64,000 nt of DNA, from assembly GCA_008632985.1 (NCBI GenBank), contig QPGO01000060.1:1-64000 (forward strand), read 5' to 3'. Under the pieces are notes generated by a model. That model was not told where the DNA came from. It was given only the letters and a program-made list of their open reading frames with translations, and did not search any database. Source of the stretch: Psammoneis japonica. Taxonomy: Eukaryota. The translations under genes were made by a program, and so were the position numbers. Positions 1 through 26,344 of this stretch are shown piece after piece (within the stretch, counting starts at the first letter, position 1; the number at the start of each line of letters is the position of its first letter).

Positions 1-74
1 GAGACTCATCTGCATTTAGACAGCAGTAAGGAGTTGTTGTTTGAATTCTTGCCATTTGCCTTCAATTTCTGTCA
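1..74 (+). repeat. 3' end of the 5' LTR
   Basis: gagactcatctgcatttagacagcagtaag...ttctgtca aligns to 6820-6894 with a few substitutions and one indel. Confidence 0.92.
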
Positions 75-1022
75 GATTAACAGTCTTGCTCATTGTCAAC
101 CCATTGAGCAACCGCCATCGTCGTCGTTGATTTACCAACGACGCCACCTCAATTCTGCGTGGACCTCCGTGTGCACTCTACATACATCGGCAAGTCTGCG
201 CGCATTCAATGCCAGGGCATTGGCAGGAAGTTAACGTCACCGTCAAGTCTCCTTGCCGCTGGACATCTGGATTGATTGTGCTGCCTTTGATCGCTGAAGA
301 CACACATTCAACGGTCATGTCCAAGTCCATCCTTGATCCTCATCCCTTGACACACCTGTTCATCGGTTGACGGTCAAGAACCCTGCATGTTCAAGGATCT
401 TCGTCGCTGAAGACACACGCACACACACACATCTTCACGGCCAAGAACCTGCACCCACTCTTCGGACTGCGGTTTTGCTGCCACTCTGCAAGCACACCGA
501 GTCCATTGCACCTGATCTGCCCCGGACCACTGGTGCTCTGCAGTTCCACCAGGTCCACGAGGACGACTGTGAGAGCAAGCAACCGTGATCACAGCCTGTG
601 TTGGGGCGAGGGTGCTTTCCCGCGTTTGTTCGTTCGTCCACAGCGCCTGACGCCTGCGTCAACTGGCCAGCCTGATCGGGAAATCCAACCGACACAAAAT
701 GAGAATGGTTCGGGGGTCTTGTCCACCTCTGGTCAGCTTACCTGCAGGGGTTTACAACCCGCTACTCCGCTCGCAAGCAACCCAAAGCGCCACTGGCTGC
801 GGGTTCGGACGTGCCGGCACAACTCTACGGACCGGATAGGAAGTTTAGCACTTGACAACGAATGGGACAGCAAAGCCCGGCAACTTCTGATTTTAAGATA
901 GATCAAGATTTCAAGTCAAGTCCATTTCAAGTCAAGTCTATTCTCACCCAAGTTTCAAGTCTGCCTTCACTGCCTTCGCTTCCCAACAAGAATTGCTTGT
1001 CCTGACACCACTCTTGTCTACC

Positions 1023-6671: not shown

Positions 6672-6894
6672 CTTGCCGCGCACAGTTTTGTGTGCTTTAG
6701 TTCCGCGCGTTCGCGCGCGATGTAGTTTGCTTTCGAGCCACAAGGCTCACAAGAACAATGACAGTAGCCCGATTGTACCAACTTGCACGTCTTTCGGCTC
6801 CTGTGACGGTCTCTGAGTGGAGACTCATCTGCTGTTTAGACAGCAGTGAGGAGTCATTGTTTGAATTCTTGCCATTTGCCTTCATTTTCTGTCA
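6619..6894 (+). repeat. 3' LTR (276 bp) with TGACAG...CTGTCA terminal inverted repeat
   Basis: Starts tgacagg directly after the purine tract ggggag and ends ttctgtca. Its 3' end matches window bases 1-74. Confidence 0.92.
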
Positions 6895-9100
6895 TGCACA
6901 ACCATGAGTGTTGTTGCCGGGCTCTTAAAAAGTCACAACATTGACAATGTTTTTCCAACAGTCAAAGGAGTGCCCCCAGCACAGAGTGCAATTTGGCAGA
7001 TTCAAGTGAGTGCAAATTGAGGTTTTTGCTGAACCTCATTCAAGGATGTGCACTCAGGAGTGAGATCTCCATCAGTGATTTGTGGTTGAGAATGGGAGTG
7101 CAACACACACATTGCCTGCTCCAGTGACCCAAGTGAAGACCTGAACAGATGGAAGCACCGTTTAATTTTTCCTTCCAAGTCTTGTTCAGTTGAGAATGAC
7201 AAGACCAAGACCAGAGATCACCTTTGAAGGTGTTGAACAAACAACAAAGTGGCCTCATCAAGGGCATGTGTGTCATGCTCTCTGTCCAAGATAAGATCTG
7301 CCATGGTGGTGTCACCTTTGTGTCCCAAGTCAACAGACAATGGGGGTGGGGGACAGTTGGTGGCATCCCTTGTGCTTGCCCGAAGTGTTTCTGATTGCAT
7401 GGGTGGAGAGCCACGGCAACATCCTTAGAAGCATCAACGGTGATCCAATCCATGTGCTCTTTCAAGTGAATTGCCAGATTCCAAGAAACTTGAATGCTGT
7501 TGATGCCTGCACCTCATTGTGCTTTGCAACAAGCCACCCTTTGGAACAATTCAGTGGTTTCCTCTGCTTTGCAATGTTGTGAAGGATGGTGGCTTTCTTG
7601 CATGATGCTTTTGTTCCTTTGAGATCTAACTCTGCAATCTTGTCAGCCATTTTTTGTTTGCAATGCACAGTGCTCTCTGCTGTGACCTGCTCACATTCCT
7701 CCAAAGTCAATGGAGTCACAAAGAAGCCAGCGAGTTTAGAGAGTGTTTTTGTTGCATCTGAGCAACAGTGTGGTCCAAACGTGTGTGCATCATTGACAAA
7801 AAATGAGTGAGGGTGTAAACTCAGAGTGTGTCAAAGGTCAGCCAACTTGACAGACCGGTCAGGTTTGTGGTGCAAACAGCACTTTTTTGCAGCAGCTGAG
7901 GAAAATTGCAACAGGTCTCTGTCCAAGCATTTGGCCAACTCATGATCCGGGATGTCCAGCTCAAGAAGATGGGTTGATCTCTCTGACACTGTGCAGCTCT
8001 CCAGCACTGGGCCAATGACATTCAAGCAAGCTGTGACTTGTGGTTTGGAGGATGCTTGAACATCCTGAAAAGCTGCTCTGGGAAGGTCAACCATTGGGTC
8101 ACCAAACAGAAAGGCCTTGCATCCACCAAAGCCAGTGGCAGCCAAAGCACCAGGGGTGGCAAGAACACAGTCAAGTTGCTTGGAACCTCTGGTGCAGGTG
8201 GAAAAAGCTGCACCACCCATGAGGTGAAAGAGCACATGTGAAAGATTGCATTGTTGGGGCAAGAGCAGACAAGGAGTCTGCATCTGTGGCAAAATTGGTG
8301 TTGTCCTGGCTCTTCCTTCAGCTTCATTGACTTGAGCTTGTTCACACCAAACAGAGAGCCAAAACAGCAGATGAGCACAACTTGGTCATGACCAACTTGA
8401 AAACCACAGGCCCATGTGTTGGACTGTTGATGTGCTTTTGCATGTCACCATGCAAGGCAGCTCCAATTGAATTGAGAAAAAACTTGGCTCTGACCACAAC
8501 AATTTCTGTTGATTGCACTGGTTGCCATTCACAAGCAATTCTTGCATGTGATCCTGAATCCCTTGCAGGTCCAATGGGCTGCAATCCATCACAAGATTCA
8601 ACTCTTGAGGTGCCCAGTCATCACATCATTCATCTGGACATGGAATGCCAAGTCTGCACCACTCATGAGAAGATGCTTGCAAACAGAGTTGGCCCAACTG
8701 ATGAGAGTCACCTTGTTGTTCTTGTTGGTGTTGATTTTTGACTCCAAACCCTTGGTGCAACAAGACATGATCATCATTGAATGACTCCAAAATGATGGTC
8801 ATTGGCAGTGCAGACTGTGTGGCACAGCATTGATGTTGATGACTTTTGGACCACCAGTCCAAGCAATTGAAGAACAACCAACACAGTGGTTGTGCTTGAT
8901 TTGCCTCAAGAAGCCAAAGAGAAGCAACTTTGAGATCAACTTTCAGGCTCAATGCTGGAATTGTCTAATGTGTCATTCCCAAATGAGCCAGCTTCTGCAT
9001 TGCCAATGAGAGTGCCTCTTGATCCTGCTGAACAATCACTCATTTTGGAGGAAAATCAGAGGTTTTGCTTTGCATCAACTTGATGGACTCAATTCAAAGC
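6895..9100 (-). mobile_element. Decayed non-LTR retrotransposon (LINE) ORF fragment, interrupted by the copia element
   Basis: Minus-strand translations give GHSFDCWKNIVNVVTF*EPGN (next to the LTR), WKE...SGLHLGHW, NQKHFGQAQGMPPT and RGSKQLDCVLATPG. These resemble motifs I recognise from diatom LINE ORFs (RWxxIVNVMIxKEPGN, SPSGxHLGHYK, HFGQAQGTPFT, RGSxxIDYxL). The right boundary is approximate. Confidence 0.75.
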
Positions 9101-10040
9101 AATGATGACACTTGAGCTCACAACCATGGAAATGAGCTAAAATGGAGCAGCACAACAAGCTGAAGCAACAACAACTGTCTTGAGCTCAAAAAGCACCAGC
9201 AGCTGCTGCTTTCAAAAGCAATCCTGGTCCTCACAAATGTGAAAAATCCACAAGAAGTGAGAGAAGGATGGAGAAGGTCCCAAACGCACCCCCAAAAAAG
9301 TCAGCTGGAAAAAAGACAGTTTTCCATGCCATGTCCATGAAAGAAATGAAGGATGGACAATGACCAAGATGAAGCTGGTCATGGAGGACCAAAAAGGACC
9401 AAAATGACATGTCAGCAAACCTGATGGTCCATGAGTGGATGAGCAAGACCAAACCCTCACAAAATCTGATGGCAACATTGGCGTGCATCACAGATCACAA
9501 ACTCTCATCACTGGCAGAGGATGGCATTGTCACAGTGACCAAGGACATGGCAAAGGTGACGAGGCTGCTGGGAGGTGGCCTGTGTTGACTGACCTTTGCT
9601 GACCTGCACTCTGTGCTTGTTCATGCACATGATGAGTTTTTTGGCAATGTGCAAGGGAAAAAATCTGGCACTGAACTCTGGGCAGTGCAACAATCTTGCC
9701 AGGAATTGAGGCTGCTGTGACCCCACCTTGCAACAGCCGCAACTCTTCAGAGCAATCGACTCAGCAACACCACAAGACATGCAGCAGCAACCATGGGATG
9801 CACAAAAGGATTAAAGTACAAGAGGAAGAGCAATCATTGAGTTTCCACCATGCCAGAAAAGGAAGCTGGGGCCGAGAAGCATTGAAAGAACAATGGGTGT
9901 GCAGAAGTGACAACGAAAGGACTGCAGAGGTTTCTGCGCTGCAAAATCCACCATCAAATGCAAGCAGCAGATGCTCTGACACATCACTGCAAATGGCAAG
10001 CATCAGCACAGAACAGAAAACAAAACAGCATGTTGTAGTA
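9100..10040. repeat. Unclassified TpA/CpG-depleted decayed repeat sequence
   Basis: Same TG/CA-rich, TA/CG-poor composition as the adjacent LINE; no recognisable domain. Confidence 0.45.
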
Positions 10041-10087
10041 AAAGACATCCCTGCCCATTAAGTGCAAAAGTTACAAGGTCCTCAAAC

Positions 10088-13000
10088 TCAGCGAAGAATG
10101 TCCAAACCTCCCTCCTCGCGCGGAGATGTCCGAACAAATTCGATTTCTTTTTGCACCCATTCTAAAAGATCCCACTGTCTCTCTCCCATGTTCCATTTGA
10201 GTGACAAAAACAAAATGTCTTCAACATCATCTTCAACAAACCCTGCGAGAGATGGTTTCACCCTTTCTCCGTACAGGCGTTCAACTTGGGGAGCATTCAC
10301 CTTGTCACGAGCAACTCTGGGAAATTCATCAACAAAGCATATTGCTGAGGTTAGCATCAGGGCAACCTCATGCGATTCCTTTGTGACATCTATGCCAAAG
10401 TTAGTCTGATGGACAGCAGTCAACGCAAAATCTTTCCAGTCAAAGCTGTGCTGTTCACCGCGACAAAAGAGCACTGCGGTCTGTCCTTCTTGTGTGTGGG
10501 ATAGGTCCCGCACCACTACCAACTCCTTCACTTGTGGCAAAATTTCTCTCCATGTGCTTTCAATAACAGACGGGTCATACTCATCACCACCAAAATTGAT
10601 TGATTTCCTGCTGCGTCCAGCTATGGTCAGCTTATTCTCGGTAAAAAAGCCAACATCTCCAGTTTCATACCATCCCTCATCATCCAAAGGGGTATCGGTA
10701 CCGCTGTTAAGATATTCGATCATCATTTGGCTTGATCGGAGAATAATGCTTCCTAGTGTGGCGTTCACTTCTTTTCGCGAATTCGTGCCGGGGTTTTCGT
10801 CGAGCGGCTCTACTCGTACTTCAACACCGTCACACAGAGTAAGAGCATCAGCCTCGGTAACATCGCGGCTTCCGATAAGGTGCGCTTCACTCGATCCATA
10901 GGTTTCATATATCTTTACGTGTGTCCCGTCTTCGCGTGAAAAGGCAAGTATGGCTTCATCGATACATGCCGGTAGTAGCTTGGATCCAATAGTCAATATT
11001 GTCCGCATTGACTGCAACGTTAGTGTCAGGTCTTCTGGATCCATATTGCTTACTGCGTCTACAACTTTGTCTAGTTGATGAGGAGAAACAACTGCGGCTG
11101 TGGCATCATTTGCCAACAAATATTCAAGAAGCCCTTCTTTTTCGTCGTCTTCCTCCTCCTCATCTTCTTCTTCTTGGAACGACGAACGAAAAATGGTATC
11201 AAAGATTGGCATCACGCACGCACCGAAAATCAAAGATGGAACATACACGTTGTCAAGACCCGCAGAGTCATCCATGCCGAGAGGACAGACTATCTTTTCG
11301 CTAGGGTCGTGTGATAGTAACTTCTGGGAATTGGTAGCAGTGACAAATACAGCCTCATATGAGCTTGCAACAACCTTTGGCAACCCTGTCGATCCAGACG
11401 TGAACGTCAGAATCGCTTCCTTGCTAAGAGGGAACGTCTTCGGTGTGTAAGGCAGTGCTGATAAATACGACTTCCAAGGAATGTCTTCTTCGACCAGAAT
11501 CATATTCGGTACACCTGGCACGAAGTCCAACGCCAAAACTACTCGAGTCGTGTTGTGACTATTCATGACAGATGAATAGCTCTCACTGGTCAAGCCATCG
11601 AGCACTATAACTGCGGGGTCAATAATCTCGACTACCTCGGGGAACCGGGGGTGCCACATCTGTCGTGCAACATTTGCATACGTGAAAGCATTCTTGAAAC
11701 AGGCGAGCATGAGTACGTATACATCGTACTCGTATGTAGTTTCAGGGGTCACAGCGATCATCACTCTTCCATTTGACCTAGGTGGCATGTGATGACGGAT
11801 AATCGCAGCTGCACGGTCAGCGTCGGCGTGGAGCTGTGCGTGCGTTCGGACAGTATCTCTGTATTCCCCTGAGGACTTTCCAACAGATACCATTGCGGGG
11901 GAAACTGCGAAGTTCTTGTCTGGTGGGCCGTCCAAAATTACAGACGCAGCGTGGATTAAGGCTTGATGTGAAGCTGAAGCGGCTTGATTCGGTGTAACAT
12001 TCACTTTAGACGGTGTTCCCACGGATCCACCAATAATAACGTCTTGCTTCGTAATCAGGAACCGGACTACACGATTGCTCACTGAGACACCACCGGGCTG
12101 GATCAAGACGTGCAAAAAACAGAGAAAAACAGGCAACCACATGATGCTGCGAGTCGAGAAGTTCTTAAATTCTCCCGTGTTGTTGGAGATCGCGGCTCTT
12201 TCGCTACCAATCTTTTTCGACTTTAACACATCCATGATACCTGGCTTGTTCTGGCAGTCGCTCCCATTTAAATCTTTTAGGGCTGTCCTTGCTACTTTCA
12301 AATTCACAGGCTCTGCCCCAATGCCAGCCATATGAAACCCAGGCCCCATTGCTATGATGATGACGCTGCGGCTTTCCTCAGTTAATTCGTTCCACGCTTC
12401 TGATGCCATTCGTAAGACTGTGCTTGACGCCAAGTTCCCGCCATCTCTGAGGCTAGAACGCATCCGAGCTATAGATTTTTGAGAAATATCAACCGCGGTG
12501 TTCTTTTCCATAGCATCAACCATCTTGGATCCGCCTGGATGAATGACATGCGACACTGTGGTCATTGGTGCAGCCCCCATAGGAGACACAGAAGACCTCT
12601 CGCTTGTTTTGGCAGTAAGGTCCGCAGCAAATCCAGGCACGTGCTTCTCAACAACGTCACAGAGCTCTTTTGTAGTGACAAAGTGATATCCCATTTGGTC
12701 GTAGTCAAAGTAGGAGACATGAGTCACGTGAGGGACACACTCTTGTTTTCCCGCAAGCACACGAAGCCCGCAAGCTCCTTCATTCCCATGGACGGAGTGA
12801 ATGCTATCTCTCACGGAATGTCCGCCCCGCATCACGCAAGCAGAGGCACAATCGCCGAATAGAGCAGAATTGAGGAACACACTCATACCTTGCTTGTGGG
12901 GCCGGAAACCAAGGGAGCAGAACTCCAAAGAGAGGATGAGTACGTTCTGAGTAGGGTTTCCCAGCAGCAAAGTTAATGCCATATCTAGGGCCACCGCACT

Positions 13001-14224
13001 CGCAGCGCAACCCGCTTGTGTCACCATCGGCTTGCAGGTCTTCTTGAATGGCACAAGGTGCGTCAAGTAGTGATACAGATTTGGAAATGGATACGGCTGA
13101 TGTGTTGACACAATCACGTAGTCAATATCTTCAGCCGTCAACGCGGCCTCTTCGAGAGCTTTGGCGATAAGCCCATCGTCACCACACAGCTCACGCTGCG
13201 CAAGCTTGATGAATATATCGCGCTGCAACTGGGGAGTGATCTTCTGCGAAAGCTCTGGGAGGCCGTCAACAATAAGCTGATCACCTACTTTGAAAGGGGG
13301 GTTTTCCAAGGGAACAAGAAGAACGCCACTTTCAACAGAGGCGTGCTCGCCAGGCAGGACAAGCTCTTCGTTGTACTTTCCCGTAACTTTTTTCCAACTT
13401 TCATCGTGCAGAAGCACAGGAGGCTCAACTTTATTGTCGACCGATACGTTACCTGCCGAAGGCTCGTTTTTTTCTGTACGGAACAAAAGTGGGTGCACTT
13501 GCGCATCCATTCCTACCTTGATGGAGTTTTCAACATGCGGTTTGTGCTGGTGTGTCGAAGAACTGCTTGGTGATTCCTTGGATCCTCGTTCTTTGATTTC
13601 CCGCGACGCGTCTAACGCGTCAAAGCTGTTTGATCTCCCCACCGGTTCGACGACTCCTTCATCACGGTCACCAGTTGTTGGTTGAACTACTGTGAATCCA
13701 ACCCGACCAGTCAAGTTGATATCTTTTACGATGGCTTCCAACTTTCCCATCTCCCCCGAGTCTCCCAGCTCAAGTTCGACCAAGCTGATGCCGCCTGGTT
13801 CGCTAGTGAAGATGTTTGAACATTTCATGTAAAGCCCAAAGGCCGGACGCACAATGTGCCGCTTTTCAACTCCCATGGTATTGAAAATGATATGAGACGC
13901 TTGCTTCAGTGCCCCCTCAGGGTCATTTTGATAGTTTCGGAGGATGTGTGGAAGCTTAGTTTGGATTGCCAGTGCAAAATCCTTGTTAGAAACCACATGT
14001 TCCGGGAGCCAGACCGAGGGCTTGAACAAGACCGGGTCTTTCCAACAATCGTGTTCGTCAGACGCCTGCCTTGCGGCACTGTCTCTGTCGAAGTCTTCTG
14101 ATTTAGAGCCGTGGTCGTGAGTCTCAGCCTCGGGTTTGAAGGTTTTTTCCCTGAAGGTGGTTGACCGTCTGTTTTCCACTTGCGCTTCCGCCCCAAGGAC
14201 GTCTTTCCCGAAAAGCTTCTTCAT
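10088..14224 (-). CDS. Type III polyketide synthase (RppA/chalcone synthase-like) fused to a C-terminal ANL adenylation (acyl-CoA ligase-like) domain, ~1378 aa
   Basis: Uninterrupted ORF, probable start MKKLFG at 14224 (ORF open to 14584). PKS triad: AGCAAS (Cys ~13008), IHPGG (His ~12540), GGNLASS (Asn ~12435); also LEFCSL, ALFGDCASA, MGPGF. ANL motifs: FTSGSTGLPK, YETYGSSEA, WYETGDVG, IAGR, FPRVARDKV. Confidence 0.92.
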   Translation of the reverse strand: MKKLFGKDVLGAEAQVENRRSTTFREKTFKPEAETHDHGSKSEDFDRDSAARQASDEHDCWKDPVLFKPSVWLPEHVVSNKDFALAIQTKLPHILRNYQNDPEGALKQASHIIFNTMGVEKRHIVRPAFGLYMKCSNIFTSEPGGISLVELELGDSGEMGKLEAIVKDINLTGRVGFTVVQPTTGDRDEGVVEPVGRSNSFDALDASREIKERGSKESPSSSSTHQHKPHVENSIKVGMDAQVHPLLFRTEKNEPSAGNVSVDNKVEPPVLLHDESWKKVTGKYNEELVLPGEHASVESGVLLVPLENPPFKVGDQLIVDGLPELSQKITPQLQRDIFIKLAQRELCGDDGLIAKALEEAALTAEDIDYVIVSTHQPYPFPNLYHYLTHLVPFKKTCKPMVTQAGCAASAVALDMALTLLLGNPTQNVLILSLEFCSLGFRPHKQGMSVFLNSALFGDCASACVMRGGHSVRDSIHSVHGNEGACGLRVLAGKQECVPHVTHVSYFDYDQMGYHFVTTKELCDVVEKHVPGFAADLTAKTSERSSVSPMGAAPMTTVSHVIHPGGSKMVDAMEKNTAVDISQKSIARMRSSLRDGGNLASSTVLRMASEAWNELTEESRSVIIIAMGPGFHMAGIGAEPVNLKVARTALKDLNGSDCQNKPGIMDVLKSKKIGSERAAISNNTGEFKNFSTRSIMWLPVFLCFLHVLIQPGGVSVSNRVVRFLITKQDVIIGGSVGTPSKVNVTPNQAASASHQALIHAASVILDGPPDKNFAVSPAMVSVGKSSGEYRDTVRTHAQLHADADRAAAIIRHHMPPRSNGRVMIAVTPETTYEYDVYVLMLACFKNAFTYANVARQMWHPRFPEVVEIIDPAVIVLDGLTSESYSSVMNSHNTTRVVLALDFVPGVPNMILVEEDIPWKSYLSALPYTPKTFPLSKEAILTFTSGSTGLPKVVASSYEAVFVTATNSQKLLSHDPSEKIVCPLGMDDSAGLDNVYVPSLIFGACVMPIFDTIFRSSFQEEEDEEEEDDEKEGLLEYLLANDATAAVVSPHQLDKVVDAVSNMDPEDLTLTLQSMRTILTIGSKLLPACIDEAILAFSREDGTHVKIYETYGSSEAHLIGSRDVTEADALTLCDGVEVRVEPLDENPGTNSRKEVNATLGSIILRSSQMMIEYLNSGTDTPLDDEGWYETGDVGFFTENKLTIAGRSRKSINFGGDEYDPSVIESTWREILPQVKELVVVRDLSHTQEGQTAVLFCRGEQHSFDWKDFALTAVHQTNFGIDVTKESHEVALMLTSAICFVDEFPRVARDKVNAPQVERLYGERVKPSLAGFVEDDVEDILFLSLKWNMGERQWDLLEWVQKEIEFVRTSPREEGGLDILR

Positions 14225-15111
14225 GGAAGGCGTGCGAGAGAATGGGAGAGTCCACGAGTTTGTGAAATGAGGTCGCGATAAAAGAAATCTCGATGGAACC
14301 TGCAGGGAGTAAATGGTGGTGCAGTTGCAGACAATGTGTGTGAGTGATCGACGCGCAAGTGGAACAAACCAAGGCTCTCCCTCGAGACACAAGAGAGAAT
14401 ATGTCTGATGTTTGCCTTGTTTGGTGACATACCAGTACTGGTTGCTTTGAGCTGCACTGCTAAAACGAACGAATGAAATTTGGGAGAGGAAATAATTTTC
14501 AACGCGTGAATCTCCGAGTGCTTCCCGCCAAAACGAAAACGCATCCAGCCATGTTGACGAGATGGCACAGCTTTCAGCTTTCATGCCATCCGGCCGTTAT
14601 TAAATAAATAAAAACTGTATCGAGAATAAAGGACCTCTATCTTTTAAGTGGAGAGGGCCCAACTGACTCTATAATACAGCACATACTGCATAAATGTACA
14701 TTAGGTGCTGTGTTACTTACAGTAGGCCGCACTTGGGGAAACTTTCACACATACACTTCTCTATGCAATTATATGTATTCGTGTTCGAATAAAATAAAAA
14801 TTGGTGCGAAAATTTCACACATTTTTCGGCACGTGGCCTGATGATGCGTCAAAATTGGCTTTTGCTGACTCATAATAGAGTTGAAACACAATTTGATTGG
14901 CTGAAAATACAGCGCATGGGAACTGAACAACGGTCCACACAGCTTTTTCACTTCCTTGTTTTGCAAACTGTTTGTTGCGCAGAATTTCGCAATTAGAAAA
15001 ACCTGGACAACAGTGCAGCATTGCAAAAACCAGTGATGCACAGCAAGTGGACAGACTCCCAGCAACACTGAATTCACGTTCCCCATGATGACAACACTGT
15101 GCTGCCATCCA

Positions 15112-16340
15112 ATGAAATGGATGAGAAAGAAAGAGCCAACTGTTCCTTGCAGTTGTTCCACAAACTGAGACTCCTCCTGTTGCTGTTTGCGTTCTTTCTG
15201 GGTTGTCAAGGCATGATGACATCCTCACCTGCCATCTTTCCCCAGTCTCCGTCGGTCCAGGCAAAGAAAGAAAACAGCACTTCCACTCCCACTCGACTCT
15301 TGGTGGCCACCATTGTGGGAACCTCCAAGTTAGAAATGGCCCTGCACATTGAAGAATCCTGGCGGCAGTTCTTGGGTCCAAATGATGCACTTTGGACCGT
15401 TTGCGATGTTGGTTGTTCCAACATCGCAGGCAGCTCCGTGGTCGAAATGGATCCGGAATTAATCCATTCCGTTCGTCCAAACTTTGAAGAAAAAAACTGG
15501 GGATGCCAATTGGCACAACTCAAGTTTTGTCATGCCTTGATTTTGCAAGTGCAAGAATTTGCAAAAGACAGCAAACTGTCTCAGTGGACATTTGTCAAAG
15601 ATGACGACAACCATTTCCGTGCCGATCGATTGATGCAATTGGCGCAGAGGGAGTGGACTTTGCCAAGGAAAAAGCAAGTCTGGCAGGAGGGTGGCTTGGA
15701 CAAAGCACAGAAAGACAACATCCACCGGGGGATCATCTCTGTGGCCCTCCCAAAGGCTGTGGTTGGCCCTCGGGAGGTGCCGGATGGTTGGTCAGTCAAG
15801 CCATGGCACTGGAGTTGGCCACCCACCTGCAAGACCAAGTTTTTGATTTTATGTGACACAAACTGGAACAGTCCAAATGGGCCTTTCACTTTGACATGTG
15901 GCTTCCGGTTGTTGCCAATTGGGGTGGTGGGAAACTTCGCCATTCTCCTGCTTTGGTGCACTTGCAGCCGGGACAAACAACCTGTTTTGACCCGGGTGCG
16001 AATGCCACCTCCTTTGTTGCCCTGCACATCATGAAAGACTTTGTCAATGCACATGGTGGCACAGAAGAGGCTTTGAGGAGGATTGAAGACTGCATGTGGC
16101 TGCCCTTTGTGCCACCCATGGAATCACTGTGGGATTGGATGGCACAAACCAAAGGGCAAAATGCATCCATCGAGCATTGTGGGACTTCTTAACAAAAAAG
16201 AAAAACAAACCTCCATTCAACATTTCTCCCCTGACTTTTTTCATTGGTTGGCAAAAAAATTAGATGCTCATTCTTTGTCCCAAATGTTGCATCATGACAA
16301 AGTGGTTGCTCTAAGAGCTGCATCCAGGAAAGAGTTTTGA
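15112..16340 (+). pseudogene. Decayed Fringe/GT31-like glycosyltransferase gene
   Basis: N-terminal hydrophobic anchor (LRLLLLLFAFFLG) and WTFVKDDDNHF, resembling the WxxxxDDDxY motif of GT31/Fringe enzymes. The frame breaks after ~15650. The sequence is TA-depleted and the long ORF contains no Tyr. Confidence 0.5.
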
Positions 16341-17131
16341 GGGAGGTGCAGACAATGTGATCAGCCAAACAACACGTGCAAAAGCTGCCTGTGGCTCAGA
16401 ATTGCCACAAGGAGTCTAGCCAGCTAGTTGGCAAAGGGATGCAGTGCACATGAAAGCCAAGTCAAAGGCAAGAACATTGGAAGATGATGTTGGCAGCTCT
16501 CAGTTCTCAATCTCTGTTGCTTGCAAAGTGAGAGCCCTGGCAGCCCAGCTGGATTGAAATTTGAAACTGACGTCATTGGTGTCAAAAATCCAGTGCTTCA
16601 TGACATTTGCTCGGTTGCCACAACAAGAGCACAAGAAAACCAACAAGACTGAGTGAGTTGCTGTCTGTCTTGCATGACCCTTTGTAAAGTGAAGCTGATG
16701 ATTCTGATGACTCCCAGTGGCTTGTCAACCTTGTCACTTTGCCGTCATCAACTCTGGATGTGCAGCAATTGTTGTTTCTCAGTCAAGAACAAAAAATGTT
16801 CAAACCTTGTGATGACCAGATGGACCCTGCAGACCAGCAGCGCTGTGCAGCTGAGGCTGAAAGTGTCATGATTCTCATGGTGACTATGCTGCTGATGCCA
16901 AGGCCCTGGAAAATTCCAGCCAAACCCTTGTGTGCAGCTTAGAATTCCTTGCCGAGGCTGCCAATTCCCACTTTGGAAGACACGTGTTGCCACTTCCTTC
17001 CCACCACACTTGCCATGGCCGAAAATGATCCACAAGCAAAAAGGAGTCTCAAGGAGGCCAAATTTCCAGTTTTGCCTGAGGAAAAAAACCGGCAGACTGG
17101 CCAGCCAGCAGACACTCTGCTGGAGTGCTCA

Positions 17132-17351
17132 GAGCCAAGAGGGCAGGCCCAGCACAAGGAGAGGATGCCTTGTGGGTGGCTGAGCTCTTGGAGGAGTCAC
17201 CGTGCGACAGTGGCACGCAGCAGAAGGCAGGCAGACAGATGTGCGGACAACAACGAGAGGCCACCCCAGTTTCCCTCATTGTGTTTGGTGGACTGCCAGT
17301 GATGATGGGATCAGTTGCGTCAACCCAATGTGGGCCGACAATGCTGAAAAT
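17132..17351 (+). repeat. Split direct repeat A1
   Basis: gagccaag...cccagcacaaggagagga...gctgagctcttggaggagtcac...cccagtttccctcattg...gggccgacaa...ctgaaaat recurs at 25473-25708. Confidence 0.88.
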
Positions 17352-18620
17352 GTTGCTTCTGCCAAGTGGCATGCCTTGCACAATTGCCCACAAGCTGCAC
17401 ATGGTGCCAGTTGATCCATGGATTGGCTTGACCATCTTCAGAGCCTGCAAAACCATGATGAATCAGCCATCAACTTGAATCCGGTAATGTCCTGCAAGCC
17501 AAGTTGATTGTGCATGATGCCTGCATTGCTCTTGTTGCTTCTGAGTTGTTCTGTCAGAGTGCGAACAATGCAGTTTGGTGTTTTGTGTTGGCAGGTTGGG
17601 ATTGCTCCCATTGCCACAAATGCCCCTTTGATCATGTTGGATCCAGATGGTTTTCTGCAAGCCAACTGATCAGGATTGAATTGTGATCCACCTCGTTTTG
17701 TCTGATCTCACATCAGAATGTGAGTGCATTGTCCATGCATCCCATTGCTTTCCAAGCATGTCAACCTTCCGTTGATTGGCTGCTCTGCATCTGCCTTCTT
17801 TTCTCTCAATTGTGCTGAATCCGGACAACATCTACAAGCCGGTTAATCTGGATCACTGCCCTGATCCACCTCGTTTCATCTGATTTCAACCTCAGAACAT
17901 GAGCACATTGTCAATGCAGCCCAACATTGTTCAGGTCCACTGCCCTGCAATTGTCAGGTTGCTCTAAAAATTGGCCTCTGTGCCATGATTCTCTCTCCTT
18001 CCTTCACCCGCCATTGCAGTCACCAGATCTCACATCCATCTCATGTGTGTTCATGAACAGACTACATTCTGACCATTGCAATGGTTCCACATGAATCACT
18101 TTTGTGCTGTGACATGTTCTGAACACATTCTGTGTCAGAGTGTTCAAGCAAGGATGCTCCCCCACAAACATCTCAACAAAACCACTGATGCACAAAATCT
18201 GACACAAATTTGTGCACATTTTCAAACATGCCCCTCTGATCCAGGAATTTCTGCAAATGTTTGATTCCTGATGCACCTGGCAGATCATCTGTGCATTCTA
18301 TGGTGTTTGCATGAAAAATCGTGACCACAACTTTTGGAGATTTCAAATCTCTTGGGACAGACCTTTGGCTTCCCTCCATTTTCTTTCTGTTGGTCAAAAT
18401 TTCGACCTGCTCCACGTTGCTCTTGGTCTTGCAGTGCCTTGCAATTCTGATTCTGATTGTGTGAAGCAACTCCCTCTGAATTGCTCCGGTTTTCTGGTGC
18501 AATTTGTGCAGCATTCTACACCAAACTTTCCATCCAAAAACTTCATTTCTCTCCCACAAAACTTTGGTTTTGCCTTTTTGCACTTACCTTTCAAGCCTTC
18601 TCTTTGTCTCCCATCTTGCC

Positions 18621-20880
18621 ATGGCTGCCAACATTCTTGCTGCTGTTGAGCATGGCAAGAAAGCTTCTCCCATCAAGCGCTGTTCCCAGTCGGGAACACA
18701 GACCGAGTTTGCTCCTAAGCAGTCCAAGCTGGTCCTTCACTGTGACATCAACGGTGCTCTTGCCAACCATGTCTGCGGTCAATTTGATCAATTCTTGATG
18801 TTCTGCAAAGGCTGCATCATCCCTGTTCCTTTCATCAACAGTGGGAACCAAGTCAAGTTCTTGTCAAACTCTTCCGATGATGTCAGAGAAGTTGTCCCCA
18901 TGTTGGGCACTCACCAATGTTTCCAAGGACACTTTGTGACTCCAACCCCAATCCCAACCCTTGTGCATTGTGCTGACATTGTTGTGTTCAACCTGCCTTG
19001 AGCTGAGACTCCTCCAGATGATGTTGAAGGTCCACTTCTAACGGACGGCAATCAAGATGCGGCACCTTTCAAATGTCTCCATTTCAGTGACCCCACTGCT
19101 CAGGATGATCAACCTGTCATTGCTGCTCCTCCGATGGCATTCCCTGCACCTCCAGGCTGTTCCCACCCATTGGATTTTATTCCTGGAGGAAACTGCCCTA
19201 CAATGGCGGCCAATTTTCCTGCACTTGACATGTGGCAGAAAGGCATCACTCACATCCAGCAGCATGATGCCAGCTGCTCTCTCAAGGAAGGCAGACCTCT
19301 TTTTGACCAAGCTGTGGATGGTCTCCAAGTTGTTGATGACTATGTTGGTTTTAACATCTGCAACTTCTGCAACAATGATTTTCAGGCAGTTGCACCTTTC
19401 TCGGACAACTGCCGTCATGTCCAAACTGCCATCAAGACATTTTTGGATGCAACCTGGCAGGTGCCAGGTGCCACAATTCCAGTGGGCCAATGGGCCAATC
19501 CCGGAAATGGTGCCCAAGCTCACGGAGCCACCACTCACACTCCCCTTGCTGTCCAAGTCAAGGCCCCTGAATCCAAGAAGAACAAGGACCTCAAGAAGAG
19601 GGCTGGTGACATTCATGCCCATTTTTTGCTCATGTTCAGTCACAAGGTGGTTGAATCTGACACTGTTGCACTTCGAGAGCTCCAACAAGTTTTTGTTGAA
19701 GCCCTCCAAGAGTCTGGTGACACTGAATGGGCTCGCCTTGTCAACAAGATTGTTGCTGCGGCCATTGATGGTGTCAAGTCTGTGGACATCTTTGACCAAG
19801 CAGTGGCTCTTTGTCCTGCTTGCATCAACAAGGCTTTCACAGACGGAATCCATTGTTTCAAGTTTGTGGGTCAACCACTGAACACATCTGTCACTGCCTT
19901 TTTATCAAAGATCAACCTTCTGAACTTCCTCACCCCCCATGTGGACACCTCAGAATGCATCAAGATTGCCAAGGAAGGTCAGGAGCACAGCAGCCATTCT
20001 GTGAATGCTGACTCTAAGACCACAACTGCTGAGTCAATCAAGAAGTCAACCCCACACACTCATGGCCATGCTCAAGATTCCTTGGATGTTGTTGCAGCCT
20101 TGAGCAACTTCAGGCTTGCGTTCAGTGCTCTCATTGAGAATTTCGATGATGATTTTGTCTGGCAACAGCCAAATTGTTGCTGTGCGGTTGCTTTTGGTGA
20201 GATTGGAAAGCAATGGATCACGAGTGATTGAAATTCTCACAAGATTGCCGCCAATGTGCTCAATGACATTCAAACCATCATTTGCACCTTTGCTCAGCTT
20301 GGAAGCATCCCTCAGTGCCGCGAGGTGATTTGCACATCCCAAGATGTCAGTGTCAGGGCTCTGGATGTCTCTGAGCATCTCACAAACCAATCCATTCAGG
20401 ATTTGGAGGCCAACATTGGTCATGGTCCTCCCAGAACCTTTGGGAGCAAGTGTGCACTCTGCCAGCTTGCCAAGAAATCCAACACTGCTCCTGCGACTGC
20501 CAAACGTGCACTGGACTCTCCTGCTTCAATCACGTCTCTGGCCAAGAAGCCAAAGTTGCCTCCAACTTTGACGGCAGACGAAATTGAAGTCTGCAAGAAG
20601 CTGGGAATGCTTGTTGTCTCTGGCAACCCTCGTCAGCCCCCTGTTGTCCCTGTTTTGGCAAAGAAGGGACCCGACTCCAACACCAAGGAATGTTTGTTTT
20701 CCTTCTTCTTGATTCGTGGGTTTGGCTGCAACCATTCCAAGTGCAAGAAGCCTCATGTGGCAAACTTGCGCAGCCTTCCGGAGTCAAAGCACAAGGAGTT
20801 GATTGACTTTGTTGAGAAGTCCAATGCTCTTTCCTTTGCTGAAGGAAAGGGCCCCAGTGGTGCATCTTCTTTGTTTTGTC
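18621..20880 (+). pseudogene. ORF1 (gag-like) of the YR retrotransposon, fragmented
   Basis: Consecutive long + ORF pieces (18504..19001, 19134..20231, 20256..) upstream of RT, ending in a Cys/His cluster (C...CNHSKCKKPH). Assignment is mainly positional. Confidence 0.5.
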
Positions 20881-21423
20881 ATCTGATGAACTGGGGCACT
20901 TGGTTTTTGATGTGCATCAGTGACTTGCATGTTTTCTTTGACCTTGCACCACCAGCAAAGATCATGGACTCCAGAGCTGCACACACAGGTGGCACACCCA
21001 ATGCCTTTTCTTCTGCCAGTGCTGATGCATTCATGGAGGATGACATCATCCTTCCTCTTGCGGTTGGCAATCTCAAAAATGCTTCTGCATCCCTGGGGCT
21101 GGCAGCTCAGGATGTCACTGATGCAGCTCCAGTTTTTGTCTGACAACGTTGAGGAGTTTTGCCCTGTTTTACCCCCAATGACAACATCAGGGCATTGTCC
21201 CGCCCCTGTTCCAACCATCAATGACTCTGTGAAAAAGGCTGAACGAAAAGCATTTGTTTGCAGCCATCTCTCTGACCATGTTCGGTCTCAGCTGGAAAAT
21301 CCATTTGGCAAGGATTGCATTCATCAACTGTTTGCTTCAGAGGCCACTTGTGTTGCTGCCAATTTGGAAGTCTGGTTTCTTGTCTTCTAGTGCCACTGGA
21401 GAGAGCTTGTCTGCATCCAAGGG

Positions 21424-23700
21424 ATGTGTTGTGAACTTGGACAACCTGTGTTGCATGGCCCCAGATGTTTGGGTGTCTTTGTTGTCTCCTTCGGGATTGT
21501 CAATTTTAATTCCTTGAAGGGATGTCCTCAAGGCTGGGAAGAAGAAACGGAACCAAACAAAGACCATGTCAACCAGACTGCAGCAGGGACATTGCACTTT
21601 GATGGCAACCTGGCATCATTGGTCAGATGGGTTGGCAGCCCGCAAGCCGGAGCACATCAGCATGTTTGTTGGATCATTTCCTTTTTGGAGGAGAAGGTGG
21701 ACCCGCAGGTCATGCAAACTCTACAGTGCATGTGTCTGGACAGGGTTCTGGCCCATTGCAATGGCCACAATGCTGAAGAGAACTTCCAGGCCCATTTTAA
21801 TTGTGGGAATCATCCATCAGTTGATCTTGACCTGGAGAAAATGTGCAAGACACTGGTCGAGGACTCCAAGAGAGGCTTTGTCCTTGTTTTCGACAAGCAA
21901 ATCATCCCCCACATCTTAAACTGCCACTTGTCTCCCCAGAGCCTGGTTGGCATCAACAAGTCATTCAAGAGCCCGCAAGCAGTGTCCGACAGTGCGTTCC
22001 AGCCCACTCCATCTTCCATGGCTGTCAACGATTTTTTGTTGCTTGAATTCAAACCTTCCCATGGCAGTGCTGCCGTCAAGATGGACATTGTGTGCAGGAT
22101 GCATGACACATGGATGATCTTTCATCCAACAGAAGACATCCACCCAGTGGATGATGATGCCATGGGGGTGCACAGGACAATGAAGCATCACCCGAACCTT
22201 GTGGCGATGCACACTTCTGTCCAGTGTGGGTGTGGTGTTGCTCAGACTGGCTGCAACTTTGGAGACACCCCCAACCCTCCCGACTGGGATGGGGGTTGGT
22301 CCCAGAGCCACCAGCAATTGGCCCAACATGCTTTCCACATTCTGAATGTCATCAAGATCATGCAGCCTTTTTGCCAGAATTTGAGTTCCCAGCTCCTCCT
22401 GTGGAGGATGACATCTCTTCATTTGCCCAAGCTCTGCCAGACACATTAAACCCTGGGGGTTTCCAGGGTGGCCTTTGCATCTCACCGACCTTCAAACACC
22501 ATGTCATTGATGATTTGCATGTGGACGTCCATGACATCCTGCTCTGGACAGTCTCTGCAAGTGTGCTTGCAATCCATGTTCTCCAAGGTTTTCCTTGCAC
22601 AGAAGTGCCAAATGCTTTGAGCTTGGAGAAGCTCAACCTCCTCCTTTGCTGGATTTGCAAGCCACTTGGGAGGCTGCATGACACCAGGAGTTTGACTGTC
22701 GGCATGCCTGACTGCAAACATGACAAGCTTCTGGCTGTCCTTCAAGATTGGATGGGCAAGGTCAATTGCATTCTTGGGGAGGTGGCCTCTTTGTTGGGAA
22801 CACTGGAGAACCACACCCAACACTTCCCTTGGGCTTGTTGCTGGTTTTTTCAACTTCAGAACAATCTTTGGGCAGATGTGATTGCCAGGCACCATGTTGC
22901 CCAGTGCGTGTTCGACAACTCTGGTCATCATAACCAAATTTTGTTCCAACTTTCCCCAAAGCTCCTCTGCCGTCTGGAACCTCTTCTTGCTGAAGAAAAA
23001 GCCCAGCTTGTGTGCCATCTCCACATCAAAATCACAGTTTCCATGTCACTTTGTTGGTCCTTGCAGTTTGTTTGACGATGTGTCGAGTCAACTCCCAACC
23101 CTTGGGAGGCCGAGATTGGAGCTGTCATCCTGCGTGATCCCCACTGTCAGGGGATTGGTGATGCCATCAGTCTTGGTGGTGGCGGATGCTGCCAAGAATT
23201 TCAATTTTGGTTTCTTGTGCTTTGGGGTCCTGAAATTCAAAGAGGGCTCCACCTGCGGTCAGACTCTCCGGGCTGTGTCTTGATGAACTCTCTGGAGTTC
23301 ATCATTTCCATTTTGGTCCTGGCCAACATTGTTGCTTTTGTGGAGTCTGTTGATGAACCACCAGACCCTGAATTGGTCTCAGCTCTCTTCTCTTCCATGC
23401 CATCCTGGAGAACTTGGTGGTCAAGATGCGGACCGACAATGTTGTCGACAATGGGTGGCAAAATGGACATGTGATGAGCTCTCTCCAAGGCCAGCAACTG
23501 CTGCCAATTTGGTGTGCACTTTGCATTCGTGCTCACCTTGGCCTCAACTCTGGAGGCGTCCACTGGTCAGGCAACCAAATGCAACTGGCAGATGACATGT
23601 CTCAACTGTCTGACCCTCACTTGCCTCATTCTGTTCATGTTGCCCAGCTGTGTCAGAAATGTCCTTTTCTGAGGACTTGGACCTTTTTTTCTCCCCAGTT
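21424..23700 (+). pseudogene. Reverse transcriptase/RNase H of the YR retrotransposon, fragmented
   Basis: CGNHPSV, HLSPQSLV, DDDAMGVHRTMKHHP, NFGDTPNPPDWD and HHVIDDL (decayed YVDD); RNase H-like GDAISLGGGG, NSLEFI, TDNVV, HWSGNQMQLADDMSQL. Confidence 0.75.
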
Positions 23701-23789
23701 GAGAGCTGCTGCAACTGCTCTTCTCTCATCTGTTCTCCGAACTGCTGCCAGCCCCTGTGGAGACCCTGCAGTGCTCAGGACAGCTTGCA

Positions 23790-24870
23790 CAAGATGCACC
23801 CACCATTTCAAATTCACCAAGGATGTGAAGTGGGATGTGGGTGACCCGGAAATGCTCGTGGAGAAGCTCTTGGAGCATCATTGCCAACTGCAACTCACCA
23901 TGCATGCCATGCATGTTGCAGAAGGGACTTCCATTTTTTGTGAGAAACTAAAAGCCAACACCACATTTACTTGTGCAAAGGATGTCATGTCATTCATCAA
24001 GTTGTTTGGACGCTGCCGCGACTGTTGGCATGACCACTCTGTTGACACTGAGTTGAGAAAGTTGTTCCAAGACACAAAGAAGGAACTCCAGTGATGCAAC
24101 GAAGCTCCTGAGTGTTGCAAAGGTTTTGGCTCCAAGATGCTCCAAGAATCTAAGGAGCAGGCTAACACTGTCTGTGCTTCCAACCCGGATGGGCTGCTCT
24201 GCTCCATTTCTGATTGGCGCCAAGTGCGCCCATTCTGTGGTGCCTGTCTCCAAGAGTGGGCACAGACAAAGAGCAGATCTGACCCAGCTCGTCCGGCAAT
24301 TGATTCCCAAGGTGGCACCCAAACTTGGCATCTCAATGACATTGAGGTCAAAACTGACAACTGCCAATGCACCTGAGGGGCACCGACATCTTGTCAGTGC
24401 CCATCTCTTTGATCTCCAAGATGTGGGTCATGTGGCTCACCCAAAAAAATGAGGACAACGGTGAGGAGAAACTTTTTACTCTGAACCTCCAGCAAGACAG
24501 GCTTGACTTGGTCAAACCAACACACCATGTCATTGAGTGGTTTGTCTGCATCCATGGCACAAAGATGATGCCACTGCCCCTCTGTCCATTTACAAAAAAG
24601 CAGGTGACAAGGCAAAGCTGATCACCTCTGTGGAAATTGAGGATGACGTGCATGAAGTTGCCTCAAAAATCTGTCGCCTGGACCCTGTTGAGGATGCAGA
24701 AGCACTTTTGCACTGGTCAGCCCACTCTCTCCATGTTGGAGATTGTGTGTTGCTCCACCAAATGAACCTTGGTGCACAGTCTGTCCAATGGCTGTTGCGA
24801 TGGAGGATTTGTGGTTTGCCTCAGGAACTCTGCTCTCTTGGCAGACCACCAGTGCAGAGCTCTTGACTGC
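23790..24870 (+). pseudogene. Tyrosine recombinase of the YR retrotransposon, fragmented
   Basis: GACLQEWAQ (box I R-x-x-E remnant), WLTQKNEDNGE (TQKNG-type motif), SAHSLHVGDCVLL (HSLRVGA) and WLLRWR (box II). Confidence 0.75.
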
Positions 24871-25250
24871 TCTGCAGCCATGCCCCACCTCTTGTAAGAA
24901 ATTTTGAAAATTTCAAAATTTCTGTGACATTTCATTTTGTGTGTGCCACATGTTGCATGTTTCATGTTCCTTTTTTCAAATTCAAACAAGTGCAATCTGG
25001 TTTGATTGTGTTGGTTTTCTCATGCTGTCACTTGCATCGGTTTTCACTGTGCCAATTTCTTTGAATGTTTTTTCTCCTGCACAGCACATTTCCCCATTTG
25101 GGGCCCATGCAATCCTGACCGTCCACCCTCTTGAGGGTGCTGACCTTCAGTTTAAATCCTGTTTTTTCTTTTTTCTGGCTGGCCATGTGTTGCCTCTGAT
25201 GACATGGGTGCATGCGCTCCACTTCATGCAATGCGTCAGCAGCCACATGG

Positions 25251-25947
25251 TCTGTTCACACAGTGTTGGGGAACAAAATGGATGGAACCAGATCTGCAGA
25301 TTTGCTCCCTGTTTTCCAGCTGCTGTCCAGCAGCACCACACGAACACACATGCTCCACACATTGGACACATTCATGCATTGATTGTTGCACCCATTTTTC
25401 GGCTTGCGCGCTGTGTCATGTCATCGGGGTTGCAGCTGAGCCAAGGCAGTGGCAAGGAATCTGCGATTCTTGGAGCCAAGACGGCGGGCCCAGCACAAGG
25501 AGAGGACACCTTTTGGGCGGCTGAGCTCTTGGAGGAGTCACTGCACAACAGCAGCACCCTGCAGAAGGCAGACAGACAGATGGACAACGATGAGAGGCCG
25601 CGGGCGGGCCGCGTGCCCCAGTTTCCCTCATTGTTTTTGGCAGACTGCCAGCAACGATGGGATCAGTTGCATCCACCCGATGCGGTGTGGGCCGACAACG
25701 CTGAAAATTCCCACCCAACCCAGACCTCTGTTCACTCAGTGTTGGGGAACAAAATGGACCGAACTGGATCTGTGGATTTGTTCCCTGTTTTCTAGCTGCT
25801 GTCTCAGCAGCACCACACGAATGTATGTGCTCCATACATTAGATATATTCGTGTATTGATTGTTTTGTCCATTCGGCAGCTTGCACTGTGTCATGTCATC
25901 GGGGTTGTAGCCAAGCCGAGGCGTGGCAGGGAATCTGCGATTCCTGG
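25251..25947 (+). repeat. Split direct repeats B1-A2-B2
   Basis: tctgttcac...gtgttggggaacaaaatgga...ggaatctgcgattc occurs at 25251-25472 and 25727-25947, flanking the A2 copy. Confidence 0.9.
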
Positions 25948-26344
25948 TCATTTTTTCATTCCTTGAATGGTCATTATTTCGATCTTGTGTCCCCATGACT
26001 TTTCATTTGGTGCCTCCATCGAATGATTTATGTCAAATGTCGCGATTTATGACAAAGGTCATAAACTCTGTTTTTCATATAAGCCGAGATTTATCGGTAA
26101 TCGTGCAAATTTCGCAGTGGTCATTATTTTATTCCAATCTGCGCGGTACTTCGTAGGCTTGTAATACGACGTTGCCTGGACATTTCGTTGTATCGAAAGG
26201 GTCACAAGTCAAAAAGCGCGGAGCTGCCGCCACCAAAACTGCACAACGCACAACACAACCACCGTCAAGCCTTTCATTCTGTGTGCAAGGTTGGTAGGAA
26301 CTAAAAGGACGACCGTCAAAAGGACCAGAATCATCATTCCCAAC

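Follow-up and report, generated by a model that had tools for sequence, protein, structure and literature searches.

Introduction

Type III polyketide synthases (PKSs) are textbook stand-alone homodimers that require an activated starter and obtain their starter thioesters from separate enzymes. Where an ANL-family adenylating enzyme is paired with a type III PKS, as 4CL is with CHS, the two occur as separate proteins. In Steely, the C-terminal type III PKS takes its acyl chain from a multidomain type I synthase equipped with an acyl carrier protein (ACP), and this type I/type III combination is, to our knowledge, the only natural type III PKS fusion. The present work concerns a gene on the minus strand of contig QPGO01000060.1 from Psammoneis japonica (GenBank assembly GCA_008632985.1), located at 10088..14224 of the first 64,000 nucleotides, a stretch referred to below as the window. 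Its single reading frame contains a type III PKS followed by an ANL adenylating enzyme. On the evidence presented here, the chances appear evenly balanced that the gene is a genuine lineage-specific fusion in a diatom-like nuclear genome, encoding a bifunctional enzyme that would activate its own starter acid.

In the passages of PMC7284882 that bear on the subject, some diatom transcriptomes are described as carrying type III PKS homologues, and an ancient bacterial transfer into stramenopiles is cited; the corresponding passages of that article and of PMC8329260 note diatom type III PKSs so far only in silico.

Reading Frame and Coding Potential

The open reading frame (ORF) is intronless and, counted to its farthest ATG (P0001), extends over 10088..14584, encoding 1498 amino acids (aa); its location on the minus strand was absent from the first-pass annotation. 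Met121 (start of 'MKKLFGKD', with 14224 as the first base of its ATG) is the better candidate start, because the 120 codons upstream of it lack a coding signal and all segments from residue 121 onward favour frame 0. This holds for eight out of eight segments by codon usage, with a positive log-ratio in each. The coding sequence from Met121 to the stop codon (10088..14224, the stop codon occupying 10088-10090) comprises 1378 aa, arranged as type III PKS, linker, hydrophobic segment and ANL enzyme. The open 5' stretch corresponding to residues 1-120 of the longest ORF (14225..14584, minus strand) is probably noncoding: its log-ratio is -0.006 in frame 0 vs 0.000 in frame 1, and a contig of run X1, discussed below, carries a 1-nucleotide (nt) deletion at 14452. 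Residues 121-184 (14033..14224, minus strand) constitute a hydrophilic N-terminal region without a hydrophobic leader, modelled by AlphaFold2 (AF2) with a predicted local distance difference test score (pLDDT) below 50.

The chance of a stop-free frame was 5e-5 in 20000 shuffles of the insert described in the next section and 1e-3 in 20000 shuffles of residues 758-880. An ORF of such length is not due to chance. Taken together, the ORF listing, the Pfam matches, the alignment to chain 1u0m and a motif check confirm the earlier observation of one intronless ORF holding both domains with intact core motifs.

The Polyketide Synthase Half

Pfam detects Chal_sti_synt_N (PF00195) at residues 438-585 (36.7 bits vs a cut-off of 27) and Chal_sti_synt_C (PF02797) at residues 613-754 (32.3 bits vs 27). 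Cys526, His682 and Asn717 (13007-13009, 12539-12541 and 12434-12436) align to the GCAAG, HAGG and GNIAS positions of 1u0m, and this catalytic triad is invariant in all nine aligned clade sequences (alignment A1). The proposal of a complete Cys-His-Asn type III PKS is borne out by both domains and by the aligned triad. The core (residues 442-757, 12314..13261, minus strand) also contains the LFGD Phe and the GPG loop. The N-terminal segment 'VLFKPSVWLPEHVV...KRHIVRP', quoted in the first-pass annotation, is present at residues 185-247 (13844..14032, minus strand) and aligns to residues 12-64 of 1u0m and 8-71 of the relative P0003.

In the AF2 model, the block-mean pLDDT of the core lies mostly at 65-95; the whole-model mean is only 57 because of the insert. 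The top Foldseek matches of the core are 4jap, 1u0m and 8ysp, with TM(target) of 0.63-0.73, probability 1.00, E values from 3e-20 to 4e-19 and identity of about 19-24% (22% for 1u0m). According to the model and the alignment, this half is a PKS with an intact predicted active site and a predicted thiolase-type fold.

The N-terminal segment is split from the core by an apparently lineage-specific in-frame insert of 194 codons (582 nt; 13262..13843, minus strand), recognized from the alignment and the coding signal. Neither this insert nor the hydrophobic segment at the junction figures in the first-pass annotation. None of the four aligned relatives that reach across this position (P0003, P0004, P0006 and P0020) contains the insert, the remaining A1 rows, also four, starting downstream. 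The insert is flanked exactly by P0003 residues 71 and 72, with the core resuming at residue 442, the equivalent of P0003 residue 72. Its frame 0 is coding-like (+0.18 per codon), and the other frames contain 7 and 13 stops. No Pfam match at E<=10 and no Atlas match were obtained for it. An intron at this position was considered and rejected on the basis of the coding-like frame, the stops elsewhere and the lack of a GT at the 5' edge. A string within the insert, 'LGDSGEM', which looks carrier-like by eye, is likewise set aside, as it lacks PP-binding support.

The Adenylating Half

The ANL adenylating enzyme (10157..11977, minus strand) is collinear with residues 32-640 of the stand-alone, 660-aa relative P0002, with a tblastn E value of 1.5e-125 and 38% identity over 634 columns. 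The collinearity extends to the very C-terminus and includes a family-specific extension. Pfam AMP-binding (PF00501) covers residues 909-1292 at 68.8 bits vs a cut-off of 29.9. The core motifs, all on the minus strand, comprise the A3 or P-loop motif TSGSTGLPK (residues 1062-1070, 11375..11401), the A5 motif YGSSE (residues 1229-1233, 10886..10900) and the stretch from A7 (YETGD, residues 1306-1310) to A8 (GRSRKSINFGGDEYDP) at 10571..10669, which aligns to 3a9u and 9bhy; the PDB alignments of this half run through A8. An A10-like PRVARDKV containing Lys1428 and the family-specific C-terminal extension (LKWN..W..LLEW), the latter common to P0002 and P0011, lie at 10091..10321. Consequently, the P-loop, YGSSE and TGD motifs reported previously are confirmed; the terminal Lys is present in PRVARDKV, but by motif resemblance only, AMP-binding_C being undetected. 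An acidic low-complexity run, QEEEDEEEEDDEKE (residues 1137-1150, 11135..11176, minus strand), lies in the N-domain shortly after the P-loop and is shorter or absent in P0002.

Models of characterized families are not reached by this half. The fatty acyl-AMP ligase (FAAL) models NF006624 and MbtM NF004510 score 36.6 and 52 bits vs cut-offs of 600 and 621, and both cover only residues ~1251-1365. MenE TIGR01923 scores 67.6 bits vs 330.15, below the equivalog level. Chains of 4CL match over only about 100 residues (3a9u, E 3.5e-8; 5bsw, E 8e-8). Judged by these scores, the ANL half is not a 4CL orthologue, because no NCBIfam equivalog is reached.

The Junction

The two halves are connected by a linker of 57 aa (residues 758-814, 12143..12313, minus strand) with an open frame and no Pfam match. 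Its coding signal, +0.06 vs -0.60 and -0.16 in the other frames, is the weakest among the in-gene segments. It is followed by a hydrophobic segment starting from Met815 ('MWLPVFLCFLHVLIQPGGVSV', residues 815-835, 12080..12142, minus strand), positionally equivalent to the hydrophobic N-termini of stand-alone ANL relatives. On the Kyte-Doolittle scale, no other 19-residue window is as hydrophobic as residues 817-835 (1.74). In the alignment, Met815 corresponds to the initiator Met, and the hydrophobic segment to the leader, of P0002, P0009 and P0018, the three stand-alone ANL relatives with visible N-termini (P0009 and P0018 being N-terminal fragments).

Two ways of breaking the frame at this point were considered and rejected. 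A linker intron from GT(12240) to AG(12098) would measure 143 nt, not a multiple of 3, and would remove Met815 together with the hydrophobic segment. A linker frameshift finds no tail-anchor remnant in the other two frames.

The position of Met815, exactly at the start of the hydrophobic segment and in register with the initiator Met of the relatives, is also what would be expected if the locus gave two proteins. In such a case, an internal start of transcription or translation at Met815 would yield a stand-alone, leader-bearing ANL enzyme in addition to or in place of the fusion protein, the PKS would act alone, and the read-through frame would have little meaning; the separateness of all relatives with visible ends and the weak coding signal of the linker agree with this possibility. 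However, a separate PKS needs a stop codon, and none is found in frame before 10088. Moreover, a crude screen of 336 GT..AG pairs returned no strong splice candidate within residues 740-900, a tail-anchor remnant is missing, and the linker frame would be open by chance with a frequency of only 1e-3. Two separate products are, on these grounds, rather unlikely, and this option still carries some weight.

The hydrophobicity of the junction bears on a further alternative, that of a real fusion without substrate channelling, in which the segment would act as a membrane anchor and the domains would lie on opposite faces or serve different steps, sharing only co-localization or co-regulation. The hydropathy maximum at 817-835 points in this direction, as does the leaderless N-terminus, with which the PKS half should stay cytosolic. 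The leaders on ANL relatives and the tails on PKS relatives suggest, in addition, that both parent families are membrane-associated. Nevertheless, the strongly hydrophobic run is short (about 13 residues), includes His and Pro and gives way to basic residues, and would thus make a marginal transmembrane helix. A fusion of this kind seems doubtful.

Relatives of the Two Halves

Residues 181-1380 were searched with HMMER against 1.84 billion representatives (E<=1e-3), giving 2126 hits, and the following results refer to the best 150 of these 2126. No relative spanning both halves is found among them, each best stretch being confined to one half. Only P0017 (3462 aa) and P0038 (1671 aa) are long enough for a fusion, and both are multi-A-domain proteins without a PKS domain; the top PKS hits measure 270-466 aa at 32-44% identity. 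A length-matched, word-limited search (823-2622 aa) of 5.8 billion proteins returned no fused relative. The architecture is thus not common in the databases at either level.

For the ANL half, profile searches identified a single close relative, P0002; for the PKS half, they identified P0004 and P0171. Both halves fall into small divergent clades (about 40% identity) whose members stand alone wherever their ends are visible. Within them, the PKS relatives P0003, P0171 and L001-L003 and the ANL relative P0002 share 34-43% identity with the matching half of the ORF. The motifs SHxPYPFP, SLGFRPHK and YDxxGYHF are common to the ORF and the PKS clade, and THAQLHADA, GRSRKSINF, FPRVARDKVNA and the LKWN..W tail are common to the ORF and P0002. 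Unlike the two halves of the ORF, these relatives are not joined to a partner: the PKS members terminate with a hydrophobic tail and a stop (tails are seen in P0003 and L001-L003), and the ANL members start with a hydrophobic leader, a signal-peptide-like or anchor-like stretch followed by acidic residues.

In metagenome contigs, the PKS alignment gave 277 pattern matches that reduce to five loci, all of at most 1.6 kb and with unreadable neighbourhood. L001 and L002 each contain a complete ORF of about 410 aa that closes with a hydrophobic tail and a stop and is followed by 3' flank, L003 is 5'-truncated with the same ending, and L004 is cut at the contig end. The ANL alignment gave 312 pattern matches in these contigs and no relatives. 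The fifth locus (L005:338-1570) is a clade PKS that extends past its core into an ankyrin-like stretch (Ank_3, E 6e-4, short of the Pfam cut-off) and is still open where its contig ends. P0020 (618 aa) is extended at its C-terminus by about 200 aa, in which a Rossmann-like glycine motif is recognizable by eye. Additions of this kind at the C-terminus may be a recurrent feature of type III PKSs in algae.

Phylogenetic Placement and Origin

In a quick maximum-likelihood tree of 36 rows with an arbitrary outgroup, the PKS core lies inside a 14-row clade (SH-aLRT 100) with a stem of 1.75 changes per site, in which P0004 and P0010 branch first. The other members of this clade are not ANL fusions. 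Since the PKS core nests inside a clade of non-fused members, the fusion looks like a derived state.

When the profile of the PKS clade is compared with the PDB, the highest score is obtained for 1u0m THNS (159.7 bits), followed by Mycobacterium tuberculosis PKS11 (4jao, 148.3), CylI (8ysp, 115.8), Steely1 (2h84, 103.3) and an Ectocarpus PKS (4b0n, 99.9), with plant enzymes at about 70-95 bits. In the single-sequence search as well, 1u0m is the best solved match (82.7 bits). The statement that the PKS is RppA-like more than it resembles plant CHS therefore holds by score. An orthologue of RppA is a different matter: no RppA model matched, and the best NCBIfam PKS model, DpgA, scores 60.1 bits vs a cut-off of 425. 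With no NCBIfam equivalog reached, motifs of its own in the clade and a long stem, the PKS is best classified as not an RppA/THNS orthologue.

A possible bacterial origin by horizontal transfer had also been put forward. For the PKS family motifs, a search covering 185,579 prokaryote species with a single genome per species gave 47 pattern matches and no relatives. The ANL half gave 127 pattern matches in the same genome set, with nine generic hits whose best segments share 21-40% identity. Viral contigs yielded no relatives from 39 and from 77 pattern matches. Both halves thus belong to small clades without a close prokaryotic member, the PKS being on a long stem, and a recent transfer is unsupported.

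Composition, Assembly Support and Variants

Over 10001-15000, the observed/expected (o/e) ratio is 0.78-0.99 for CpG and 0.44-0.65 for TpA, vs 0.00-0.43 and 0.01-0.11 in the blocks 7001-10000 and 15001-25000. The depleted downstream flank (7001..10060) ends about 30 nt from the stop codon, and a TA-rich stretch (14601-14800) lies between the gene and the depleted upstream flank (15001..25500). The first-pass annotation had described a normal-composition island between hypermutated repeat blocks: the island is confirmed by these ratios; as to repeats, a single long terminal repeat (LTR) pair within 1-20000 is all that was found, so that the repeat nature of the blocks is not established. No tandem repeats were found in 6000-20000. 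As to the host, a window protein with four HA domains has nearest Atlas clusters that are 100% eukaryotic, most often Bacillariophyta (score 0.84, a lead only), and the window also carries SNF2 with zf-CW and RRM genes. By these genes and a Copia-type ORF described below, the window is eukaryotic, and a diatom-like host is plausible.

Contigs from two runs of one sample (X1 and X2, Logan; kind unrecorded) cover the locus. The X1 contig (8038 nt) spans 9000-14907 and the X2 contig (4227 nt) spans 10078-14300, both bridging the gene without an internal joint; the runs are possibly the source of the assembly and so do not count as independent. The acidic repeat at 11133-11179 was skipped in aligning them to the locus. 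Neither contig shows any sign of the misassembly that had been raised earlier as a concern, and the X1 contig ties the gene to about 1 kb of the adjoining host-typical depleted block. The X2 contig, of word depth 78, nearly coincides with the gene limits, reaching 10 nt past the stop codon on one side and 76 nt upstream of Met121 on the other; contigs cannot show transcript ends. All X2 contigs together total only 30 million letters.

The possibility that an assembly artefact or contamination joined a bacterial or otherwise foreign PKS to an unrelated ANL enzyme draws on the closeness of the PKS to bacterial solved structures and on the possible identity of the confirming runs with the source of the assembly. 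It is at odds with the bridging X2 contig and with the link to the depleted block in X1. Furthermore, neither half has a close prokaryotic relative, and the relatives are transcript-like, with eukaryote-style leaders and tails. An artefact is accordingly highly improbable.

Within the coding sequence that starts at Met121, seven substitutions and a net 3-nt in-frame deletion at 14151-14153 distinguish the contigs from the window. Four of the seven substitutions fall inside the insert, and three of these four are nonsynonymous. Outside the insert, beyond the differences at residues 144-145 that accompany the 3-nt indel, the only variant is the synonymous V1166V. These data are relevant to the question of whether the fusion is recent and neutral or already decaying, with one or both halves losing function and no working bifunctional enzyme as the product. 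Its occurrence in one genome only, the large unmodellable insert with its mostly nonsynonymous variants, the divergent A8 and C-terminal subdomain and the location between heavily mutated blocks would all be in line with decay. Yet the 1378 codons are free of stops and frameshifts in the window as well as in both run contigs, the variation outside the insert is synonymous apart from residues 144-145, the triad and the core ANL motifs are intact, and the gene keeps a normal CpG and TpA content that its flanks do not. Decay is, in our judgement, very unlikely.

Proposed Function

Under the reading favoured here, two stand-alone genes, one for a type III PKS upstream and one for an ANL enzyme downstream, the latter including its start Met and hydrophobic leader, would have merged into one reading frame to give a lineage-specific bifunctional enzyme. 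The ANL half would adenylate a carboxylic acid with ATP and pass the acyl group to free CoA, which is the simplest shuttle because no PP-binding domain is present. The PKS half, as a dimer, would then take up the acyl-CoA locally as a starter, extend it with malonyl-CoA and cyclize it to a pyrone or resorcinol-type product. Self-priming by the fused ANL half is inferred from the domain content. Our best guess at the starter is a lipophilic acid, of the medium- or long-chain fatty acid type, because the closest PKS relatives have hydrophobic C-terminal tails, the ANL relatives have hydrophobic leaders and the nearest structures include PKS11 and CylI. According to the PDB entry titles, PKS11 is alkylpyrone-related and CylI is 'in complex with resorcinol product'.

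A bolder variant can be formulated as a membrane-tethered self-priming PKS whose own ANL half hands over the starter without free acyl-CoA, directly from the acyl-adenylate or through the 194-aa insert, beside the CoA-tunnel strand, serving as a dock or noncanonical carrier. We regard it as a long shot; if true, it would place a second class of natural type III PKS fusions alongside Steely, with a lipidic pyrone or resorcinol as the product.

Several observations weigh against a working, self-priming fusion. The fusion is seen in one genome only, so that conservation lends it no support, and the sister of the PKS core in the tree, P0007 (SH-aLRT 83, weak), is a fragment whose C-terminal state is unseen. 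In the ANL half, A8 has Asn where the aligned 4CL has Lys (alignment with 3a9u and 9bhy), AMP-binding_C (PF13193) escapes detection even when the C-terminal 209 aa are scanned alone at E<=10, and the AF2 model, at a mean pLDDT of 39, is unusable. Pfam finds no PP-binding (carrier) domain in the 1498-aa ORF. The insert is modelled at a pLDDT below 50, and the three nonsynonymous variants among its four suggest weak constraint. It lies directly after the KRHIVRP strand, and the equivalent region of CHS contributes CoA-binding residues; by this analogy, the insert could impair the use of CoA. Finally, a true transmembrane helix at residues 815-835 would place a membrane between the PKS and ANL halves and prevent them from sharing a diffusible acyl-CoA.

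If the proposed function is correct, the gene would be a natural version of the engineered ligase-synthase fusions used for higher flux. The genetic linkage would pin down the acid-activating enzyme that feeds an orphan algal type III PKS clade, and would offer an entry point to polyketide chemistry in diatoms.

Other Features of the Window

Depleted blocks also occur at 39500-44000 and 54000-56000. Over all four blocks, CpG o/e is 0.00-0.28 in most 1-kb windows (<=0.5 at the edges) and TpA o/e is 0.01-0.11 (0.17 at one edge). In the depleted blocks TpG/CpA is enriched 1.6-1.9 and GC content is unchanged, and the gene islands between them are normal. Methylation-driven deamination would suit a loss confined to CpG; the accompanying TpA loss has no such ready explanation. 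On both strands at 19038-25795 there are many long ORFs (274-365 aa) without a Pfam match, inside a depleted block; they are probably artefacts of the TA depletion, which removes TAA and TAG stops.

A Copia-type LTR retrotransposon occupies 15-6894, with direct repeats at 15-74 and 6835-6894 (93% identical, 6820 nt apart) and a 1139-aa ORF with RVT_2. Its higher GC content (0.52-0.59), TpA o/e of 0.12-0.28 and near-normal CpG represent a state unlike that of the fully depleted blocks. The normal-composition island at 26291-38424 contains same-strand ORFs (plus strand), including CEMIP beta-helix (E 2e-41) and DUF1800 (E 3e-26), which may belong to one large multi-exon gene. At 47598-48650 (minus strand), about 33 kb from the PKS-ANL gene, there is an ORF of the fatty acid hydroxylase superfamily (PF04116, E 6.5e-20), with no link shown between the two.

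Comparison with Known Systems

For a natural type III PKS-ANL fusion, no example was found in the literature listings and matched passages; the supplementary domain-architecture tables of PMC12820801 could list such proteins. The systems that resemble the locus do so in single respects.

The plant pair 4CL and CHS/STS shares with it the combination of an acid-activating ANL enzyme with a type III PKS that extends the product. The 979-aa chain 3tsy ('Fusion Protein 4-coumarate--CoA ligase 1, Resveratrol synthase'), which we take to be an engineered construct, matched the ANL half at E 1.9e-6. Unlike in these cases, the order here is PKS followed by ANL, the junction consists of the 57-aa linker and the hydrophobic segment, the PKS is of bacterial type instead of CHS type, and the ANL half does not appear orthologous to 4CL.

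The best sequence and fold matches, the bacterial type III PKSs THNS/RppA (1u0m), PKS11 (4jao/4jap) and CylI (8ysp), have the Cys-His-Asn triad in common with the ORF. The 'SCTG' stretch of 1u0m corresponds to 'STHQPYPFP' in the ORF, and the insert and the fusion are without counterpart in these enzymes. A functional parallel is offered by Myxococcus xanthus, where a fatty acyl-AMP ligase and a type III PKS reportedly make alkylresorcylic acid (Hayashi et al. 2011), the acyl group reportedly being passed via an ACP. There too, an adenylating enzyme feeds a bacterial-type type III PKS to give a lipidic aromatic product; in contrast to the present ORF, which lacks a PP-binding domain and scores below the FAAL models, that system consists of separate proteins.

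Steely1/2 of Dictyostelium (2h84) provides the natural precedent, in which a type III PKS receives its starter from a covalently joined partner, and the PKS fold is recognizable in it (Foldseek E 1.5e-16). In the present ORF the PKS is N-terminal instead, and its partner is a single ANL enzyme without a carrier; no type I fatty acid synthase or PKS domains (KS, AT, ACP and others) were detected by Pfam in the 1498-aa ORF at E<=0.1. The hydrophobic junction, together with the anchored stand-alone relatives, suggests a membrane-associated pathway. Overall, the fusion looks genuine and rare, and no natural type III PKS-ANL protein appeared among the literature matches; there are functional precedents in separate ligase and synthase proteins, in the 3tsy chain and in Steely.

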